A stretch of 44,228 bases of DNA. Source: Pseudomonadota bacterium (GTDB lineage Bacteria; Desulfobacterota; Syntrophia; Syntrophales; UBA5619). The stretch lies in contig JAHJQP010000020.1 of NCBI GenBank assembly GCA_018819165.1, forward strand, positions 1 through 44,228, in the 5' to 3' direction. The notes beneath the pieces are model-generated. The model was not told the origin of the DNA and made no database searches. It was given only the letters and a program-made list of their open reading frames with translations. The position numbers and the translations under genes are program-made. Shown here piece after piece: positions 1-9,708 of the stretch (positions are counted from its first letter, which is position 1; every line of letters begins with the position of its first letter).

Positions 1-140
1 CAGCGGCTGACGTACACGCGAGCTTGCTCGCGGGGACGGCTGCCCGCTGCAGCCGCTTGATGGACTGGCGCGAAGCGCCAGGACAAAAGCGGATGGCAAT
101 CAGCAGCGCCGATGGCTCGGCGCGAAGCGTCCGAGCCATC
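1..140. repeat. Cluster of GC-rich stem-loops, truncated by the window edge
   Basis: Read directly from the sequence. AGCGGCTG (2-9) pairs with CAGCCGCT (50-57), with an inner CGCGAGC/GCTCGCG stem at 17-32. CCGCTT (53-58) pairs with AAGCGG (87-92) and encloses CTGGCGC-GAA-GCGCCAG (65-81). GATGGCTCGGCGC-GAA-GCG-T-CCGAGCCATC spans 111-140 with T130 bulged. The core GCGAAGC occurs twice (70-76, 122-128) and CGGATGGCAAT occurs twice (90-100, 153-163). Confidence 0.5.
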
Positions 141-143
141 GCC

Positions 144-199
144 CCGCATAACCGGATGGCAATGGAGCGTAGCGGAATTGCCAGTCCGAGTTAATGCGG
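144..199 (-). other. attC-like recombination-site hairpin (candidate attC-2); the plus strand would be the bottom strand
   Basis: A 20-bp interrupted stem: 144-152 pairs with 190-199, 153-156 with 185-188, and 157-163 with 177-183. The loop is 13 nt (164-176). AAC (150-152) pairs with GTT (190-192). The three unpaired bases (G184, A189, A194) all lie on the same arm. The site sits 25 nt downstream of the stop of the 224-895 ORF. Confidence 0.45.
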
Positions 200-223
200 T
201 TGTTGTGTGCCATTTTGGTACTA

Positions 224-895
224 CTACTGCTTCTCTGCGATTAGTTTTACCGTCTTTTTGGCAAAAGACTCGAAAATATGGGCTATGATAGGGATTTTCT
301 TTTGGGAATCATTTTTTGTGCCTTGCGTGCCAAGCCCCATGTCGATTCCCATATTTTTCTCGACGTCAAGTGCCATAAACCCAAAATAGTGTGAGAATCC
401 TACTTCGGTACTTCCAAAAGAAACATTAATAAAGGCAGAAAGACGGTTTACGAAATCAAGTTTTTGTGAATTTCTTTTTAGATCTGTGGTTGCGTTGCTA
501 TGAAGTTCCAAGTTATCAGCAACCCACATGGCGGATACACCACACAAAGGGGCCTTAGTCTCCTTGGTTCGCAGTTTTGTATATTCGTAATAATCATCAA
601 ATAACTCGGCATCTATTTGCCACTGCTTTGATAGAGCTCTTTTAACCTCATTCCGCACCTGGGGGTCAGAGAGCACGCCTTCAGCATGAACAGCGACACC
701 TGTCATAGCAATTGTCATAAGACAATCCCAAACTTCCACAAGATTCGAATCAATAATGGCTCCATAGTCGGGAAAACAGTTGACGATTGGCATGAGAGAA
801 GCCTTAGCAAGGGTATTTGTTTCCCATACAATATAATCAAATTCTCCTTCTTTATTCTTCTGCGATGATCTTCTGTTAAATGGCCAAAATTTCAT
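224..895 (-). CDS. Hypothetical protein (223 aa from ATG 895; the ORF extends to a TTG at 925)
   Basis: Long ORF in the AT-rich island. AGGAG lies 9 nt upstream of ATG 895 (MKFWPFNRR...). There is a double TAG stop (224-226, 221-223). I recognise no family motif. Confidence 0.6.
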   Translation of the reverse strand: MKFWPFNRRSSQKNKEGEFDYIVWETNTLAKASLMPIVNCFPDYGAIIDSNLVEVWDCLMTIAMTGVAVHAEGVLSDPQVRNEVKRALSKQWQIDAELFDDYYEYTKLRTKETKAPLCGVSAMWVADNLELHSNATTDLKRNSQKLDFVNRLSAFINVSFGSTEVGFSHYFGFMALDVEKNMGIDMGLGTQGTKNDSQKKIPIIAHIFESFAKKTVKLIAEKQ

Positions 896-979
896 TACTT
901 CTTTCTCCTGTTCCAGATTTATCAAAACACAATCACCTGCCGTCCAGTCATAAAAGAGAGCGGAAATGTATTTACCTCC

Positions 980-1714
980 CTATGTGACTTCAAATCTGTG
1001 AATGGGAACAGACATTTTGACCAAGGTTGTCACTCGAACGGTTTTGCCATTCAGCTTTACTTTTGCAATTCGCTTTGAATGATCGACATCGAGAATCTGA
1101 CCCAACTGGCTTGAATACAAGCAATCCTCACCAGGAATGACTTGATTCCATCTTGTAGGGCGCCAAAATGGTTTGAGGGGACGCAGTTTCGCTTTATCGC
1201 GTTCCCAAAATTCGTGATGTTTATCGCCAAGGCGACCATTCTTTTGCACATTTACTGAATCGATTATCCAGAAAGGACCAGTGTTCCAACCATAAACAGA
1301 ACGAACTCCCTTTACTGACCAAACCTGCCCCGGCATTCCTTTGATCTCAAAAACATCACCTCCCTTTAGCGGACAAGCAGGCGTGATGTTTTTTTCCAAA
1401 TAGTCATTTATTTTAGTCCATAGAGAAGCCGCTTTTTTCTCTGCCTCAGAATGAGCATAAAGAAGCTGATAAAGTTCAAGGTGGCGCTCATTCCTTAATA
1501 CTTTATCACTTTGTTGGATAGAAAAATGATTCCATGCAGCAATCGCATGCCTATCTTCCTTTTCTGAAAAATACTTATCGCATTTCTTGCAGCCAACAAT
1601 AGTGTTTTCATGCACGCTATGGTCTATTTCTGGAATCCACCGTATCACAAGGGATTCACGGGAGCCGCATAGAGGGCATGTTAAAACGTCAAATTCTTTG
1701 GCAGATTGTTCCAT
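980..1714 (-). CDS. Lar-like zinc-ribbon (restriction-alleviation family-like) N-terminal domain fused to an unknown beta-rich C-terminal domain of about 170 aa
   Basis: The N-terminus reads LTCPLCGS...VGCKKCD...HAIAAWNH. This matches the CPxCG...CxxC...AIxAWN pattern of Lar-family proteins. The start is uncertain: ATG 1714 or TTG 1729, and neither has a clear RBS. Confidence 0.6.
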   Translation of the reverse strand: MEQSAKEFDVLTCPLCGSRESLVIRWIPEIDHSVHENTIVGCKKCDKYFSEKEDRHAIAAWNHFSIQQSDKVLRNERHLELYQLLYAHSEAEKKAASLWTKINDYLEKNITPACPLKGGDVFEIKGMPGQVWSVKGVRSVYGWNTGPFWIIDSVNVQKNGRLGDKHHEFWERDKAKLRPLKPFWRPTRWNQVIPGEDCLYSSQLGQILDVDHSKRIAKVKLNGKTVRVTTLVKMSVPIHRFEVT

Positions 1715-1723
1715 ACCTTCAGC

Positions 1724-1786
1724 ACACAACGATTGAGGTCAGCGGCGGGCAGTTTTTCGCCCGTCCGCTGTAGTGACTGGTTAGGC
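1724..1786 (-). other. attC-like recombination site (candidate attC-1, 63 bp)
   Basis: Plus strand: ACACAAC (1724-1730), a 9-nt spacer, then an 11-bp stem (1740-1750 pairs with 1759-1770) with extrahelical T1764 and an 8-nt loop, another 9-nt spacer, then GTTAGGC (1780-1786). Read on the minus strand this is GCCTAAC...GTTGTGT, the order R''...R'. Confidence 0.5.
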
Positions 1787-1902
1787 GGTCATCTGTTCCC
1801 TTTATTTTTTTTCATCCTTCGTTGTGCCGGCGCCGGGCATGGGGTTTATTGTAACATTGTTCATTTATTCAATTAGAGGGCAGAAATCATCTACACAAAT
1901 AT

Positions 1903-2733
1903 TTACTTAATTATAGCATTTCTATTAATTATCTTGTAACCGTCACAATCGCGGACATCAACAAATGCTTCTGCCTTCACGATGCAAGACACGACGCCGC
2001 TTTCAATCACAACCCAAACATTCCCGTAGTTATATTTTAGATCGCTTCCATGAGATACTTTTGATCGGGGCTCGCCGGCGAATTTAATTACCTCCTGAGG
2101 CGTCATGCCCCGTTCAAGATTTTGTATGGCGGTTTTTGCTTTTGATTTTATGTCAAATTTCACCTTTTCTAATTCATCCATCTTTCCAAAAGCTTCCACT
2201 CGTTCTTTCCGAAGCGTAACTACTTCATCTATATTCTTTGTAGTAAGTTGTTGTTGCAATTTTTTCAGATTATCTTCCAGCCCTTGAAGCTGTCGTTGCT
2301 GATCAATGACCTTTTTCTCTAGCTCCCTATCAGACTTAATTTGCTTTACTCTCTCCCGAAAGGAACCGATATCAACATCAGCCTTAACCGTCATGAAGAT
2401 GATTTGATTTTCACCGACAAATTTAATTTCTTCGGAGGCAATCTCAACTTTAACGATCGCTCCGGCGAAAGTCTTTATCTCATCACGGGTCAAGTTGAAA
2501 TTCTTTATCTCTGTGGAACTTTCAATATATGTTCCTGCTTTTTCGATAGCCAATCGCTTAGCTTCAAGGAAGCAAATCCTTTTTGCATCATTTTTGGTAT
2601 CGTTATCACCCATCGTGTATTTGTAGCTGGCGAAAACAGATTCTGAGGCGGAGTAAGCTGATGAAGAAAAGGATAAGAAAATTATGATAAACAATAGTGA
2701 AATGAAGGGAGTTTTATTGTCCTCTGTTTTCAT
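1903..2733 (-). CDS. Secreted or periplasmic coiled-coil protein (N-terminal LPP20-like region, C-terminal BamE/SmpA-like region), function unknown
   Basis: Signal peptide MKTEDNKTPFISLLFIIIFLSFSSSAYSA. The central segment is rich in heptad-like charged repeats (KQIKSDRELEKKVIDQQRQLQGLEDNLKKLQQQL). The C-terminus contains GMTPQEVIKFAGEP. AAGGAG lies upstream of ATG 2733. Confidence 0.7.
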   Translation of the reverse strand: MKTEDNKTPFISLLFIIIFLSFSSSAYSASESVFASYKYTMGDNDTKNDAKRICFLEAKRLAIEKAGTYIESSTEIKNFNLTRDEIKTFAGAIVKVEIASEEIKFVGENQIIFMTVKADVDIGSFRERVKQIKSDRELEKKVIDQQRQLQGLEDNLKKLQQQLTTKNIDEVVTLRKERVEAFGKMDELEKVKFDIKSKAKTAIQNLERGMTPQEVIKFAGEPRSKVSHGSDLKYNYGNVWVVIESGVVSCIVKAEAFVDVRDCDGYKIINRNAIIK

Positions 2734-2802
2734 GAGCTATCTCCTTAAAAATTTCCGGAAGAACCTTCAAAATGATACTATTAGGATTTCTGATTAGCGC
2801 CG

Positions 2803-3315
2803 TTAGGCGGTCCAGCTATTAGCCTCAATGTTAACAATGAAACCTGATTTAAGTAGTTTGTTGCAAAATGGTGTAACATGTTCTGAACCACAGATGAACA
2901 ACAAAGGCCATTTGTTCAGGGTTTTAATCCTTGCTAGCCAAACAGCTTCACGCTTTCGATACTCTTTCTCGATCCGTTCCTGGATTTCCTCTCTCGACCA
3001 GTTATTTCGATATTGTCCATAATACTCTATTGTGCCTTCATTCATTATGCCAAGCTCCGATTGTTCATCTATAGTAGGGTCCGAATATTGGTGTGCTATA
3101 TTGAAGCTTTGAGCTACTTGAAATGGAATGGACTCATCCTGACTATTTTCATTTAAAACCTCTTTATTCATCTCTTCTGCAATTGCATGAATGCTATGCT
3201 TTTTTACTAAAACGGATAGATAATTTCGAAACTTTTCAATCTCATCATTTGATCGGCATTTATCAGACCACTGAAACTCATGATTTGTACCGACTATGAC
3301 GATAATTTTATCCAT
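2803..3315 (-). CDS. Small Tiki/TraB/GumN (EreA-like) superfamily-like protein (tentative)
   Basis: A 170-aa ORF with IVGTNHE near the N-terminus, AEE in the middle and ICGSEHV near the C-terminus. This resembles the GTxH...E...GxxH signature of that superfamily. The TAA stop (2803-2805) lies inside GCCTAAC. Confidence 0.55.
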   Translation of the reverse strand: MDKIIVIVGTNHEFQWSDKCRSNDEIEKFRNYLSVLVKKHSIHAIAEEMNKEVLNENSQDESIPFQVAQSFNIAHQYSDPTIDEQSELGIMNEGTIEYYGQYRNNWSREEIQERIEKEYRKREAVWLARIKTLNKWPLLFICGSEHVTPFCNKLLKSGFIVNIEANSWTA

Positions 3316-3342
3316 TGCATCGAGCCTAACAATGTTTATATT

Positions 3343-3480
3343 GATCCGTATAAAAACCCAAAAGCCGCAATATTTGCCGTATAAGACGCCGACGGAAATT
3401 ATAATTTATCAGTCATAAACATCATTGTATCTAATGGTTACGCATGAGCGTTGTTTTTGTCATGGTGTTTTATACGGATC
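3343..3480. repeat. 13-bp perfect inverted repeat (GATCCGTATAAAA at 3343-3355 / TTTTATACGGATC at 3468-3480) enclosing reiterated CCGTATAA motifs
   Basis: CCGTATAA occurs at 3346-3353 and 3377-3384 (direct) and at 3470-3477 (inverted). A variant GGTATAAAA lies at 3481-3489. The region is immediately upstream (minus-strand sense) of the first cassette boundary GTTAGGC. Confidence 0.5.
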
Positions 3481-3510
3481 GGTATAAAATCCTCTGCGAC
3501 CTCCCAATCA

Positions 3511-3547
3511 GTAATAAAAACCCCCGTTCTTTTCTTGGGAACGGGGT
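3511..3547 (-). terminator. Rho-independent terminator with no gene directly upstream (orphan)
   Basis: The minus strand reads CCCCGTTC-9 nt loop-GAACGGGG followed by GTTTTTATTAC. The stem is 3522-3529/3539-3546. Confidence 0.6.
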
Positions 3548-3704
3548 CATGATAGCTAGTCCATATTTCCCTCCAGCACGGTTATACGTGATGGAACATA
3601 TTCAACTGCTTTTCATATTTTCAGTTTCATTATCACGATTATCTTTTGAAATCTACAATAAAAAGAATAATGTCGACCTGTTTCTTTTAGGAAGTTGTCT
3701 TTAG

Positions 3705-3744
3705 CAAAAACACCACCCGATGCGGACCCGTATGCCGGATGGTG
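3705..3744 (-). terminator. Rho-independent terminator downstream of the RhuM-family gene
   Basis: On the minus strand, CACCATCCG...CGGGTGGTG (3744-3736 pairs with 3719-3711, 8 of 9 bp) is followed by TTTTTGC. Confidence 0.5.
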
Positions 3745-3792
3745 AGGGGGCTGGGGGAGCGCCGGCATACCGATGATGCGTCTGCTTCACCA

Positions 3793-4386
3793 TCATACGG
3801 AGTTCTTGTTCACCCGGAGGGTTGCCAGCGCAGCGGCGACTTCTTTCCCCTTTGCCTCGATGATGTCCATCAGCTCTTCCGGCGTTCGGGTGTCCACATT
3901 CGGCTTCTTGTTCGGATTGACGGCCTTCAGGTCATAGACGGCGTCTTCGATTTCCTTGGCCTTGCCGGCCAGATCCCTCGATTCGCGCGTCAGGTGTTCG
4001 CGCAGAACCCCGGTAGCCCAGATGCGGAACTGCGTACCGCGCTTGGAGTTTACCCGGTAGCCGACGGAGATAATCATGTCGAGGTTGTAAAATTTCACCC
4101 TGCGCCGGATACTGCGGCTGCCTTCCCATTGAACTACCGAGAAATCCTCGGTAGTTACCGCTTTTCCCAATTCGCTTTCCTTGTAGATGTTTCTAATATG
4201 GAGGCCGATGGTATCCGAGTCTTTATCAAACAATTCGGCCATCTGTTTCTGGGAAAGCCACAACGTCTCCCGCACCAGCCGGACATCCAGCTTTATGGTG
4301 CCGTCCGGATCACTATAAAGGACAATGGCATCCCCACCATAATCACTTGGCGGTTCCCGAAGGATGTTGGGTTGCTTTCTCATCAT
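3793..4386 (-). CDS. rhuM: RhuM-family virulence/Fic-associated protein
   Basis: Contains ...IVLYSDPDGTIKLDVRLVRETLWLSQKQMAELF...LHIRNIY...KFYNLDMIISVGYRVNSKRGTQFRIWAT, which is typical of RhuM. GGAG lies upstream of ATG 4386. The start overlaps the stop of the hsdS fragment (ATGA). Confidence 0.85.
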   Translation of the reverse strand: MMRKQPNILREPPSDYGGDAIVLYSDPDGTIKLDVRLVRETLWLSQKQMAELFDKDSDTIGLHIRNIYKESELGKAVTTEDFSVVQWEGSRSIRRRVKFYNLDMIISVGYRVNSKRGTQFRIWATGVLREHLTRESRDLAGKAKEIEDAVYDLKAVNPNKKPNVDTRTPEELMDIIEAKGKEVAAALATLRVNKNSV

Positions 4387-4610
4387 AATTCTCCATTGAA
4401 CGCCCGGCGCAGCAGGGTTGCGGGCAAGGCGTTGATCGTGGCCAATTCTTCTTCCAACGCCGCGCGGGCTTTCTCCACCGCCGGATGGAGGGCCTTGAAC
4501 CACTCACCGATCCGCTCGACACCTGGCTCGATCCGGAGGAACTCGCCGGTCAGGCCGCCCGCCAACAGGCAGCCGATGGCCGCCAGGGGCTCTTCCCCGG
4601 ACAGGGCCAT
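4383..4610 (-). pseudogene. hsdS: Type I restriction-modification specificity subunit (HsdS) C-terminal fragment
   Basis: A 75-codon ORF ending ...ALEEELATINALPATLLRRAFNGEL, the conserved C-terminal helix of HsdS. No target-recognition domains are present and there is no room for them before the neighbouring gene end at 4659. Confidence 0.65.
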
Positions 4611-6975: not shown

Positions 6976-7809
6976 TTACTCGGCCTTTTGGGCCATCGCC
7001 CTGACCCGGATCTCTTCATATCTCGTATTGAAATCCGGGGCATCCCGGTCCACCAGTTTCCCGATGGCGAAATGGTTTTTTTGCTCCTCGGCGCTCAATT
7101 TTCTGTACCGCTTCACGGGCAGGCCCCTTTCTTTGAACCAGTCGAGCATCTCCCGGGTCTCTTTCATTTCGTTGTTCTTGCCGAAGTGGGTGGGGCAGGG
7201 ACTGAAAACTTCTACAAGAGAAAATCCTTTTTTGTTCAGGGCTTCCTTGATGAGTTCCTTGAGTTCCCATCCGTGGTAGGGAGTCTCCCTGGCCACGTAA
7301 TTGGCGCCGGCGACTTCAGCCAGGGCGCAGATATCGAAACCGCGCTCCGGGTTTCCCCAGGCTGTGGTGCTGGTAAAACTTCCGCCAGGCGTGGTGCCCG
7401 AGACCTGCCCGCCCGTCATGCCGTAATTGAAATTGTTGATGACGATGGCCGTCAGATCGATATTCCTTCTCGCGGCATGAATGAAGTGATTCCCGCCGAT
7501 GGTGACGCTGTCCCCGTCTCCCATCAGGACCACCACATGCAGCTTCGGATTGAATGCCTTGATCCCTGTCGCAAACGCCAAAGCGCGGCCGTGTGTTGTG
7601 TGCAGGGCATTCGTCAACAGGTAATCGTCGGACTTTCCCGTGCAGCCGATCCCCGTTACGACGACGGTATCGGCTTTCCTGTAATCGAGCTCCTCGAATG
7701 CCCGCAGCATGGCCCCCAGCATGACGCCGATCCCGCAACCAGAGCACCACATGTGCGGCAGCACCCCGTCTTTCAGATATTTTATGCCTGTCGCGTGTGA
7801 CAATCCCAA
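6976..7809 (-). CDS. 2-oxoacid:ferredoxin oxidoreductase, beta (TPP-binding) subunit
   Basis: Contains WCSGCGIG and the TPP motif GDGDSVTIGGNHFIHAARRNIDL...NNFNYGMTGGQ. Confidence 0.9.
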   Translation of the reverse strand: MGLSHATGIKYLKDGVLPHMWCSGCGIGVMLGAMLRAFEELDYRKADTVVVTGIGCTGKSDDYLLTNALHTTHGRALAFATGIKAFNPKLHVVVLMGDGDSVTIGGNHFIHAARRNIDLTAIVINNFNYGMTGGQVSGTTPGGSFTSTTAWGNPERGFDICALAEVAGANYVARETPYHGWELKELIKEALNKKGFSLVEVFSPCPTHFGKNNEMKETREMLDWFKERGLPVKRYRKLSAEEQKNHFAIGKLVDRDAPDFNTRYEEIRVRAMAQKAE

Positions 7810-7821
7810 CCCCCTCTGTTT

Positions 7822-8649
7822 TTATCTCACCAACCCGAGCATCTCCCTTGCCTCGGCAGGGGTGGCCGGCTCCCGACCGCACTCGCGGGCAATGCGGGCC
7901 AGACGGGCCACCAATTGAGCGTTGCTTTGGGCCAATTCGCCCCGCTTGTAGTATAGATTATCCTCCAGACCGGTGCGGGCGTGCCCGCCCATGGCGATGG
8001 CCAACATGTTCATAGGCAACTGGCGCCACCCCACCGCGCACACCGACCACAGCGACCCTGCGGGTATGCTATCTATTAAGTAGAGCAGGGAACGTGCCGT
8101 GGCGGGGGCCCCTCCCTTAACCCCCAGGACGAACTGCCACCACGGGGGCGGTTTGATCAGACCATTCTGTATAAGTGTCATGGCATTGCCAATCATTCCG
8201 CTATCAAACACTTCAATTTCCGGTTTGACGTTCGCTGCCAGCATGCGCCCGGCCAGTTCCTCCAGAAAGTCCGGCGGATTCAGAAAGACGCGTTCATTGA
8301 AGTTCATGGAGCCTGCATCCAGCGACCCCAATTCCGGCCCGGCAGCCAAGCTGTTGAAGCGCTCGCCCTCATCCACACGGCCGGCCCCGCCGCTTGTAGT
8401 GAAATTGATGAGAATATCGCATCCCTGGGCGCGGATCAGTTGCTTGACCCGCTGGAACCGCGACAGATCGCAGGTCATCTTTCCCGCCTCGTCCCGCACA
8501 TGGACGTGGACGACGGCTGCCCCTTCGCGCCAACTCTCCACCGCCGCCTGGGCAATCTCCTCGGGCGTGACGGGCAGTCCGGGGTTTTGCAGCTTAGACG
8601 GCCGACTGCCGGTCGTGGCTACCGATAGGATAATTTTGTCATTGTTCAT
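7822..8649 (-). CDS. BKACE family enzyme (3-keto-5-aminohexanoate cleavage-like, DUF849)
   Basis: Resembles Kce-type proteins along its full length, for example TPEEIAQAA...VVHVHVRD and ...SNAQLVARLARIARECGREPATPAEAREMLGL. Confidence 0.85.
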   Translation of the reverse strand: MNNDKIILSVATTGSRPSKLQNPGLPVTPEEIAQAAVESWREGAAVVHVHVRDEAGKMTCDLSRFQRVKQLIRAQGCDILINFTTSGGAGRVDEGERFNSLAAGPELGSLDAGSMNFNERVFLNPPDFLEELAGRMLAANVKPEIEVFDSGMIGNAMTLIQNGLIKPPPWWQFVLGVKGGAPATARSLLYLIDSIPAGSLWSVCAVGWRQLPMNMLAIAMGGHARTGLEDNLYYKRGELAQSNAQLVARLARIARECGREPATPAEAREMLGLVR

Positions 8650-8919
8650 GTGGTATTCCTTAATCTTGATAAGAACTTGTTTTGGGTGGTGTGAGTATAT
8701 GGAAATGGTTTTTGTGCGTCAATATAAATAAACCGCCGCCATTTCCCCATGCCTGACATGAGAGGAACGGAACCACAGATTGCGCAGATGATTGAGACAC
8801 ACCGATCTTGTGTTGAAGGGAAGCGATAAATCTGATAGACGTCCATATATGAACCAGAACGTTTCTTCAAGAGAACACTGCCGTTTGCGGGGAGGCTGCC
8901 CCGAAGGGGAAGCGACGGG

Positions 8920-9708
8920 ATGAGAGCGATCTTTATCTCCGACGCTCACCTGAAAGGCGCTGAAGATGGCGTCTGTAAAAAGCTCCTGCATTTTTTCGAC
9001 CATCTTCGGGATGGGGTCGTAACGGCCGGCAGGGGGGGAGGCGGAGCGACCGGGAACGGCGGACCGGTGAATCAACTCGTCATTGCGGGAGATTTATTCG
9101 ATTTCTGGTTTGCGAGAGGTGATGTGATCTATCCCGGTTTTCGACCGGTGGTGGAAAGGCTCGCACTTTTGCGGCGTTCGGGAATCAGGATCAGCTTGTG
9201 TGAAGGCAACCACGATTTCTTCCTCACAGACTATTTTTCGCAGAAACTGGGTATGGAGGTCTATCCGGAGTGGGCCGAGATCGATCTTGACGGCCTGCGG
9301 ATCCTCGTTTCGCACGGTGATACCGTGGACAGGGAAAATCGCCGCTACCTGGCGCTGCGGCGATTCCTGCATAGCCCCTTTTCCTTCCGGCTGCAGCGTG
9401 TGCTTCCGCTGGCGTTCCTCTGGCGGATCGCCCGGATCAGTTCGGAGATGAGCAAGGGGATATCCGGGGGCGCGCAGGATCGTCTAACAGAGGTCATGTA
9501 CCGTTTTTCCCTGGACAAATTTGAGGAAGGCTATGATGCCGTAATCCTGGGCCACTGTCACAAGCCGCTCATTCGTGAGGTGCAGCGCGGCGGCAGGCTC
9601 AGGACCTTCGCCACCCTGGGCGACTTGATTACCCATGATTCCTATCTGCTGTACGAAAACGGCCGCTTTACACTGAATCGCTTTTCGCCCGAGGGGCAGC
9701 ATGGATGA
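8920..9708 (+). CDS. lpxH: UDP-2,3-diacylglucosamine hydrolase (LpxH-type metallophosphoesterase)
   Basis: Motifs FISDAHL, AGDLFDFW and GNHDF. A Gly-rich insertion follows the first motif. Confidence 0.75.
   Translation: MRAIFISDAHLKGAEDGVCKKLLHFFDHLRDGVVTAGRGGGGATGNGGPVNQLVIAGDLFDFWFARGDVIYPGFRPVVERLALLRRSGIRISLCEGNHDFFLTDYFSQKLGMEVYPEWAEIDLDGLRILVSHGDTVDRENRRYLALRRFLHSPFSFRLQRVLPLAFLWRIARISSEMSKGISGGAQDRLTEVMYRFSLDKFEEGYDAVILGHCHKPLIREVQRGGRLRTFATLGDLITHDSYLLYENGRFTLNRFSPEGQHG

Follow-up and report, generated by a model that had tools for sequence, protein, structure and literature searches.

A probable array of integron gene cassettes, with no integrase in view, at the end of a Syntrophales metagenome contig

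Integron cassette arrays are a well-known mobile gene store, and genes for defence and adaptation have demonstrably come from their cassettes. Such cassettes can encode phage-defence systems (bioRxiv 10.1101/2024.07.02.601719). A locus where two or more attC sites share a strand at distances below 4 kb, with no intI nearby, is known as a CALIN, or cluster of attC sites lacking an integron-integrase (Cury et al. 2016, IntegronFinder, PMC4889954). The locus described here occupies positions 1-3330, on the minus strand, of a stretch of 44,228 nucleotides from a Syntrophales metagenome contig (JAHJQP010000020.1), the whole of which is called the window, and it is very probably a fragment of an integron gene-cassette array of the CALIN kind, with a four-protein cargo and no integrase in view. 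Two attC sites, 1786-1724(-) and 208-134(-), lie on the same strand 1.5 kb apart, and no intI was found within the window, whose left side ends at the contig end; under the above definition the locus is therefore a CALIN.

A first-pass annotation, made from the sequence letters only, had described an AT-rich block with four co-oriented minus-strand open reading frames (ORFs), organised as a cassette array. The four ORFs, named A, B, C and D, are all present, and the GC content of the island is 0.35-0.43 (501-3500) against 0.50-0.63 rightward from 3501, so that the cassettes are read as imports. The array reading itself gained from attC model matches and from homology breaks at G/TT (the slash marks a junction throughout). 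Neither outcome named beforehand as contrary to it was observed: the genes do not sit at fixed positions without attC matches, and the boundary heptamers are not part of an unrelated repeat family, GTTAGGC being found within the window in the island only. Correct recognition of a cassette array is possible, then, for a reader with the sequence alone.

Two attC sites and two cassettes

Two complete cassettes were delimited, 3329-1730 (A, B, attC1) and 1729-140 (C, D, attC2), and this pair is bordered by ORF-less cassette-like pieces at 3705-3331 and 139-1. Contigs used for comparison carry our own labels, L followed by a number. The central features are as follows.

3324-3330, minus strand: core site GTTAGGC, the 5' junction of cassette 1; crossover between 3330 and 3329, and homology to L028 breaks here
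1730-3329, minus strand: cassette 1, ORF A, ORF B and attC1; starts TTAGGC after G3330 and ends at G1730
1724-1786, minus strand: attC1; R'' GCCTAAC, bulged stem CAGCGG(A)CGGGC with GCCCGCCGCTG, R' G/TTGTGT
140-1729, minus strand: cassette 2, ORF C, ORF D and attC2; starts TTGTGTGC and ends at G140
134-208, minus strand: attC2, 5' half; R'' ACACAAC, spacer AACCG, L'' CAT(T)AAC, 5' stem arm with three extra bases
134-208, minus strand: attC2, 3' half; L' GTTATG, spacer CGGGGC, R' G/ATGGCT

The boundary motifs stand, in minus-strand sense, where the annotation had placed them: GTTAGGC at 3330-3324, GCCTAAC at 1786-1780, GTTGTGTGC at 1730-1722 and GCACACAAC at 210-202. Moreover, each cassette start complements its own R'' exactly, as had been claimed, at 7 of 7 bases in cassette 1 (the core site 3330-3324 against the R'' of attC1) and at 9 of 9 in cassette 2. 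GTTAGGC occurs three times in the window, about the chance number for 44 kb, and all three copies lie inside the 3.3-kb island, so that the heptamers are not a genome-wide repeat family. GTTGTGTGC or its complement also occurs three times, against 0.13 expected in the 44-kb window; two of the three are the boundary copies and the third lies at 7595.

The attC calls rest on two surrogate covariance models. The first, R1, was built from eight bona fide class 1 integron attC sites on plasmid arrays (aadB, aadA2, aac(6')-29a, aac(6')-29b, blaVIM-2, arr-3, aacA4 and one more), aligned with canonical R-box and L-box pairs, and was run on the whole window, both strands (88 kb), with no filters. Its best match is 1786-1724(-), with 21.6 bits and E=4e-4, and its second 199-144(-), with 11.7 bits and E=0.67, no other match having an E below 1; these and the following E-values are approximate, the calibration having been a shortened one. 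The top two matches are thus the minus-strand sites that had been predicted near 1724-1786 and 144-199. R1 also gives 31.3 bits to the L028 copy of attC1, and the L012 copy of site 2, when aligned to R1, shows the canonical geometry R''7-5-L''8 (one extra base)...L'7-6-R'7. The training set of the second and broader model, R2, comprised 6 of the class 1 sites and 11 from other environmental contigs, leaving out the window's own sites and their direct copies. R2 returns 208-134(-) with 33.6 bits (E=1.8e-5) and 1786-1724(-) with 32.5 bits (E=3.3e-5), the next match reaching 8.3 bits. Over the alignment of these 17 sites, the canonical R/L-box pairing has 77.7% of its cells paired, compared with 25-42% when the partners are slid, and a covariation score of 0.351, compared with at most 0.142 in the slid controls. 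A scan with a descriptor of our own found attC1 cleanly, together with loose long matches inside genes, and was not relied upon. Rfam gave no attC family match, nor any match at all in 1-4000 even at E up to 5.

Both hairpins that had been claimed are real on folding, 1770-1740 in attC1 with a one-base bulge and 199-144 in attC2 with three bulged bases, while the extent of the second site had to be adjusted to 208-134, of which 199-144 is the inner part. In the cassette-sense strand, the extrahelical bases (A in attC1; T, T and C in attC2) are without exception on the R''-L'' arm. The core boxes of attC1, GCCTAAC...GTTGTGT, match RYYYAAC and GTTRRRY at 7 of 8 degenerate positions. Those of attC2 in the window read ACACAAC...GATGGCT, where R' deviates from GTTRRRY in its second base; R' is GTTGGCA or GTTCTCG in the L012, L008 and L013 copies.

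According to established integron biology, the bottom strand of each attC would fold into a bulged hairpin, an IntI tyrosine recombinase acting in trans would cut R' between G and TT, and the excised cassette circle would reinsert at attI, at an attC or at a secondary GNT site. Excision and reinsertion of this kind would account for cassette starts complementary to their own R'', and also for the finding of the same cassettes behind different attC sites in other genomes.

Exchange of the cassettes between genomes

The strongest evidence for the array reading is that, judged from the compared sequences, the modules 3329-1730 and 1729-140 are separate mobile units. Module 1 recurs in L028, which has 88% DNA identity over window positions 3330 to 1725 with both flanks unrelated; the left junction is ...GGTTTATGG/GTTCGGC in L028 against ...AACATT/GTTAGGC in the window, and the right one GTTATG/CGGTTG... 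against GTTGTG/TGCTGA.... Module 2 recurs in L008/L009, L012 and L013, at 84-88% DNA identity from 1730-1734 through the hairpin to G140, and a Syntrophales metagenome-assembled genome (MAG) is the fifth further module 2 contig, known at the protein level only. After the shared G140 the sequence differs in all four compared, being ATGGCT in the window and TTCTCGG, TTGGCAC and TTGGCAT in the others (L008/L009, L012 and L013). On the other side, the attC upstream of the C cassette differs in each of the window, L012, L013, L014 and L015; it ends ...C/GTT(G or A)TGT in the first four and GTTATGC in L015, whose C is a 38%-identical homologue. The homology therefore breaks at 3330, at 1730-1734/1725 and at G140 over five independent contigs. 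A break at G/TT and a start complementary to its own R'' are as IntI-mediated exchange predicts. The cassette-like variability between genomes that had been foreseen is thus found, since neighbours differ and homology stops at the predicted G/TT points.

The genes also occur in other combinations. A stands without B in L017, L016 and L011, B alone forms a cassette behind another attC in L031 and L032, and C is followed by something other than D in L014. C and D are found together in at least six contexts, which include a 1.34-Mb Syntrophales contig; D follows C in L005/L006, L008-L010, L012, L013 and L039. The earlier proposal of a single undescribed system is not supported, because A, B and C+D travel apart in other genomes; the four proteins are cassette cargo, not one system.

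Two of these C+D contexts have peculiarities of their own. In L005, a 100-kb contig, the C+D genes (7992-9560) have no attC, and a terminator-like hairpin comes after them. In L008, a lone C+D cassette with its own attC (7985-9574) has no attC upstream (...ACTG/GTTGTGTG) and adjoins toxin-antitoxin genes. Cassette insertion outside att sites is reported in a preprint (bioRxiv 10.1101/2022.09.11.507474), and the lone L008 cassette at a non-attC site fits such insertion.

In addition, the pattern derived from attC2, GCATTAACTCGGAC-N20-50-CCGGTTATGC, was found in 46 species-representative genomes, with about 0.1 expected by chance according to our own estimate. These genomes are mostly Desulfobacterota, other phyla and one archaeal MAG being present too, and the same site type in 46 representatives of many phyla implies a very wide circulation of such cassettes. 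R2 finds 91 attC sites in the loci of these genomes, always on one strand within any locus and up to 11 sites in 8 kb, and in the related contigs 19 of its 19 matches lie on the cassette strand. Furthermore, IntI-like remnants adjoin three of the attC2-type arrays. The attC2 type belongs to a real integron family, and a near-identical attC type across many phyla illustrates how widely cassettes circulate.

The cassettes, like the attC type, recur chiefly in Desulfobacterota. Among the loci L033-L078, in which the 24 specified bases of the site are identical, Methylomarinum, Kuenenia, Dethiobacter, Bacteroidota, Zixibacteria and one Halobacteriota MAG are also represented. As for the remnants, L052 has at 7036-7299(-) an IntI N-terminal stretch fused to the last ~90 residues by an internal deletion and oriented as the cassettes are, while in L063 only a C-terminal IntI fragment is left at 3740-4176(+), beside an attC2-type array.

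Cargo proteins and flanking pieces

The practical value of the locus lies in its cargo, four protein families without a function assignment and above all the conserved, mobile C+D pair. Since integron cassettes have yielded defence and adaptive genes before, the four families are reasonable candidates for functional screens.

2803-3315, minus strand: ORF A, 170 amino acids; stop codon inside GCCTAAC (2808-2802)
1903-2733, minus strand: ORF B, 276 amino acids; N-terminal signal sequence, coiled-coil middle, BamE/OsmE-like C-terminal part
980-1714, minus strand: ORF C, 244 amino acids from ATG; Lar-like zinc ribbon, long helix, tandem SH3/KOW/Tudor-like barrels
224-895, minus strand: ORF D, 223 amino acids; usual partner of C

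None of the four has a match above the curated cutoff in Pfam, NCBIfam, PHROGs or PADLOC, and with PADLOC none was matched at all, so no defence assignment results. A sequence search of the PDB gave nothing for the profiles of A and C, nor for D. The homologues of protein A form 21 clusters, most of them from 1-5 kb contigs, and its model is an alpha/beta fold of very high predicted confidence (pLDDT 95.4), for which no PDB fold match with E below 0.1 was found, the top one being the type III effector HopBA1 (TM 0.40, E=0.1). Its invariant motifs GTxH, EEM, HQYSDP and CGxxH suggest, at the sequence level, an enzyme. The set GTxH, EEM, RE..W and CGxxH may point to the TraB/Tiki/GumN superfamily, to which Pfam lends no support. 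B is a predicted secreted protein with 301 homologues, some of them labelled BamE or Skp by their sources, and with a weak OsmE match; its family numbers about 300 clusters. C matches the Lar family below cutoffs and has 24 homologue clusters; its model has a pLDDT of 87.6, and the fold search brought only generic SH3/KOW/Tudor barrels, weakly (TM ~0.2). D has no match in the family libraries (Pfam, NCBIfam, PHROGs, PADLOC) or in the PDB. No relative of C was present in the plasmid collection, and none of D in the phage collection. It is conceivable, if rather doubtful, that the 1.6-kb C+D cassette is an undescribed functional module (for example anti-restriction, phage-defence or addiction) spread by integrons among Desulfobacterota.

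Three further pieces surround the cassettes.

3331-3705, minus strand: AT-rich ORF-less stretch, upstream of cassette 1
3712-3783, plus strand: group II intron-like remnant of 72 nt, domains V-VI (3' end), opposite to the cassettes
1-139, minus strand: three successive GC-rich hairpins after attC2, no ORF

The first of them includes a conserved non-coding element of ~220 nt (about 3465-3700, minus strand), which ends in an intrinsic-terminator-like hairpin at 3546-3513. It has 74% identity over 231 nt to L049 (130-356), with shorter matches in L017 (3723-3844) and L033 (6827-6920), each oriented to its cassettes as in the window, and a four-sequence fold supports the terminator stem only. The element is perhaps a cassette without an ORF, or else it may encode a small RNA or a cassette-borne regulatory RNA. 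In the same stretch, the palindrome TTTTATAC..GTATAAAA is present in two copies, 3488-3465 and 3360-3337, the second of which abuts CATT/GTTAGGC. A long attC at 3335-3488 (a 154-nt 'hairpin') was considered here and rejected, as it consists of two direct copies of the palindrome, with no R'' and no model match.

The remnant at 3712-3783 lies 19 nt after the stop codon of a RhuM gene. It aligns with stretches of L024 (47 bits) and L039 (39 bits), the Rfam Intron_gpII threshold being 40, and with a similar unscored stretch of L072 that adjoins intron D1-D4 matches; Rfam itself gave no intron match anywhere in the window, the remnant included. The introns in the arrays of L024 (a class 1 integron) and L039 oppose the cassette orientation, as the remnant does. 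Its sequence suggests what is left of a group IIC-attC-type intron; the orientation is the expected one, and the piece of 72 nt falls short of the complete ribozyme (domains I-VI) of such introns.

At the other end, the fold of 1-215 has z=-7.3, and the run 1-139 shows two hairpins with GCGAAGC loops (plus strand) and repeated units at 59-100 and 111-163. It is partly homologous to an ORF-less piece of L013 (5893-6048), which also follows attC2 and ends in a weak attC-like match with GATT replacing GTT. The piece 1-139 probably represents a short cassette lacking an ORF, with an attC-like site of its own that the contig end truncates. Paralogous pieces of L013, at ~2935-3030 and 3690-3760, end CGC-GATT and not GGC-GTT. 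A third attC in 1-62, which shares the CAGCGG...CCGCTG stem with attC1, was rejected, having no model support and being cut by the contig end.

The stop codon of A lies inside GCCTAAC both in the window and in a 60%-identical homologue in L017, and the 88%-identical copy in L028 (572-590) has GTTATGT in the same 13-nt patch as the A stop (2802-2808). A decayed attC between A and B, that is a collapsed site fusing two cassettes, has no model support and stays a conjecture.

Beyond the array, 3793-4610 holds a RhuM-family gene after a 75-residue ORF, the first 43 residues of which are a fragment of a DUF554 membrane protein. The tail of that ORF may be akin to the C-terminal end of the S subunit in type I restriction systems, so that the acquired region may reach as far as ~4500 and may have truncated a host gene.

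Rival readings and known relatives

The window position 1 lies 6 nt short of the end of the 46.4-kb metagenome contig, which stops inside the array, and near-identical short contigs of other samples break inside or near the island. A tblastn search with IntI1 (a query checked as 100% identical to the real IntI1) returned no IntI homologue in the 44-kb window, in keeping with the original statement, nor in L001-L018. A complete integron with intI, an adjacent attI and Pc is accordingly not what the window holds, and the attI-containing Rfam family RF02912 had no match in it, though the class 1 control L024 was matched. This leaves a reading in which an active intI lies elsewhere in the genome, as part of a complete or split integron, so that the lack of an integrase would be an artefact of a fragmentary assembly. 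The contig end inside the array fits such a reading, for about half of the CALINs an IntI is encoded on the same replicon (PMC4889954), and related arrays in Syntrophales and other deltaproteobacterial MAGs adjoin IntI-like sequences. Nevertheless, on the side where the integrase would be expected, to the right of 3330, a RhuM gene and a truncated copy of a DUF554 gene stand beside ordinary metabolic genes, 40 kb in all, with no IntI homologue, and the neighbouring IntI that were examined are decayed, by internal deletion (L052) or to a C-terminal fragment (L063). We hold an active intI elsewhere to be unlikely, with a fair-sized minority of the odds left to it. It is very improbable, for its part, that the locus is an ordinary island gained by horizontal transfer (for example what is left of a prophage or defence island) in which the hairpins are terminators and the complementary heptamers chance. 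The low GC, the truncated DUF554 gene and the RhuM gene adjoining the island, and the chance-like count of GTTAGGC in the window would all suit it, whereas the hairpins 1770-1740 and 199-144 have no T tail and match attC models, and it is precisely at the predicted G/TT points that homology with other contigs stops. A promoter and terminator scan gave no enrichment. The least probable of the readings is that the boundary hairpins belong to a repeat family of the REP (repetitive extragenic palindrome) or MITE (miniature inverted-repeat transposable element) kind, scattered in the host genome and unrelated to integrons. Although 1-215 is indeed a run of GC-rich hairpins with repeated units, the other 40 kb hold no more copies of the attC or boundary motifs, except GTTGTGTGC at 7595, and elsewhere the same site type stands in co-oriented arrays between small ORFs.

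Several points weigh against the interpretation as a cassette array. The contig ends inside it and only one array end is visible, and two genes per cassette are unusual. In the window the R' of attC2 reads GAT instead of GTT, and under the fully independent R1 this site alone is not significant (E=0.67). The training of R2 includes two attC2-type sites from other contigs, which makes it not fully independent, its members were picked with a descriptor written by ourselves, and the E-values carry the roughness of their calibration. Moreover, the attC models gave no match in the stretch preceding cassette 1, in the gap that separates A from B, or in 1-133.

The cassette-array reading can finally be set beside the described systems. 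With the phage-defence cassettes (bioRxiv 10.1101/2024.07.02.601719) the present ones share compactness, multi-gene cassettes included, and they differ in having no PADLOC match. With class 1 attC sites (aadB, aadA2, blaVIM-2, aacA4, arr-3) they have in common the 7-5-8...7-6-7 geometry, the extra bases on the R''-L'' arm and the conserved C before GTT; the central loop of attC(blaVIM-2) is similar to the attC2 loop TCCGCTACGCTCC, and the aadA2 site (GTT[C]AAGC against GCTTAAC) has its extra base on the same arm as attC1 and attC2. The differences are R-boxes that are off consensus at one position each, GAT in the R' of attC2, an attC2 spacer that can partly pair, and an unrelated cargo. The sedentary chromosomal arrays of Desulfobacterota (Syntrophales and Desulfobacteraceae; L039, L048, L052 and L072) have 5-8 attC per 8 kb and in some cases IntI remnants, whereas here there are two certain sites and no IntI remnant. 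They are co-oriented and carry the same attC type, with the same C+D cassette in L039 and with group II introns of opposite orientation within the arrays. With respect to the CALINs as a class (PMC4889954), the present locus differs in that one array end is visible and the attC calls come from surrogate covariance models, and it has in common with them two same-strand attC sites 1.5 kb apart, no intI nearby, non-resistance cassettes and a small array. CALINs are already a well-documented kind, and the present array is a further environmental member of it that will not surprise a specialist.

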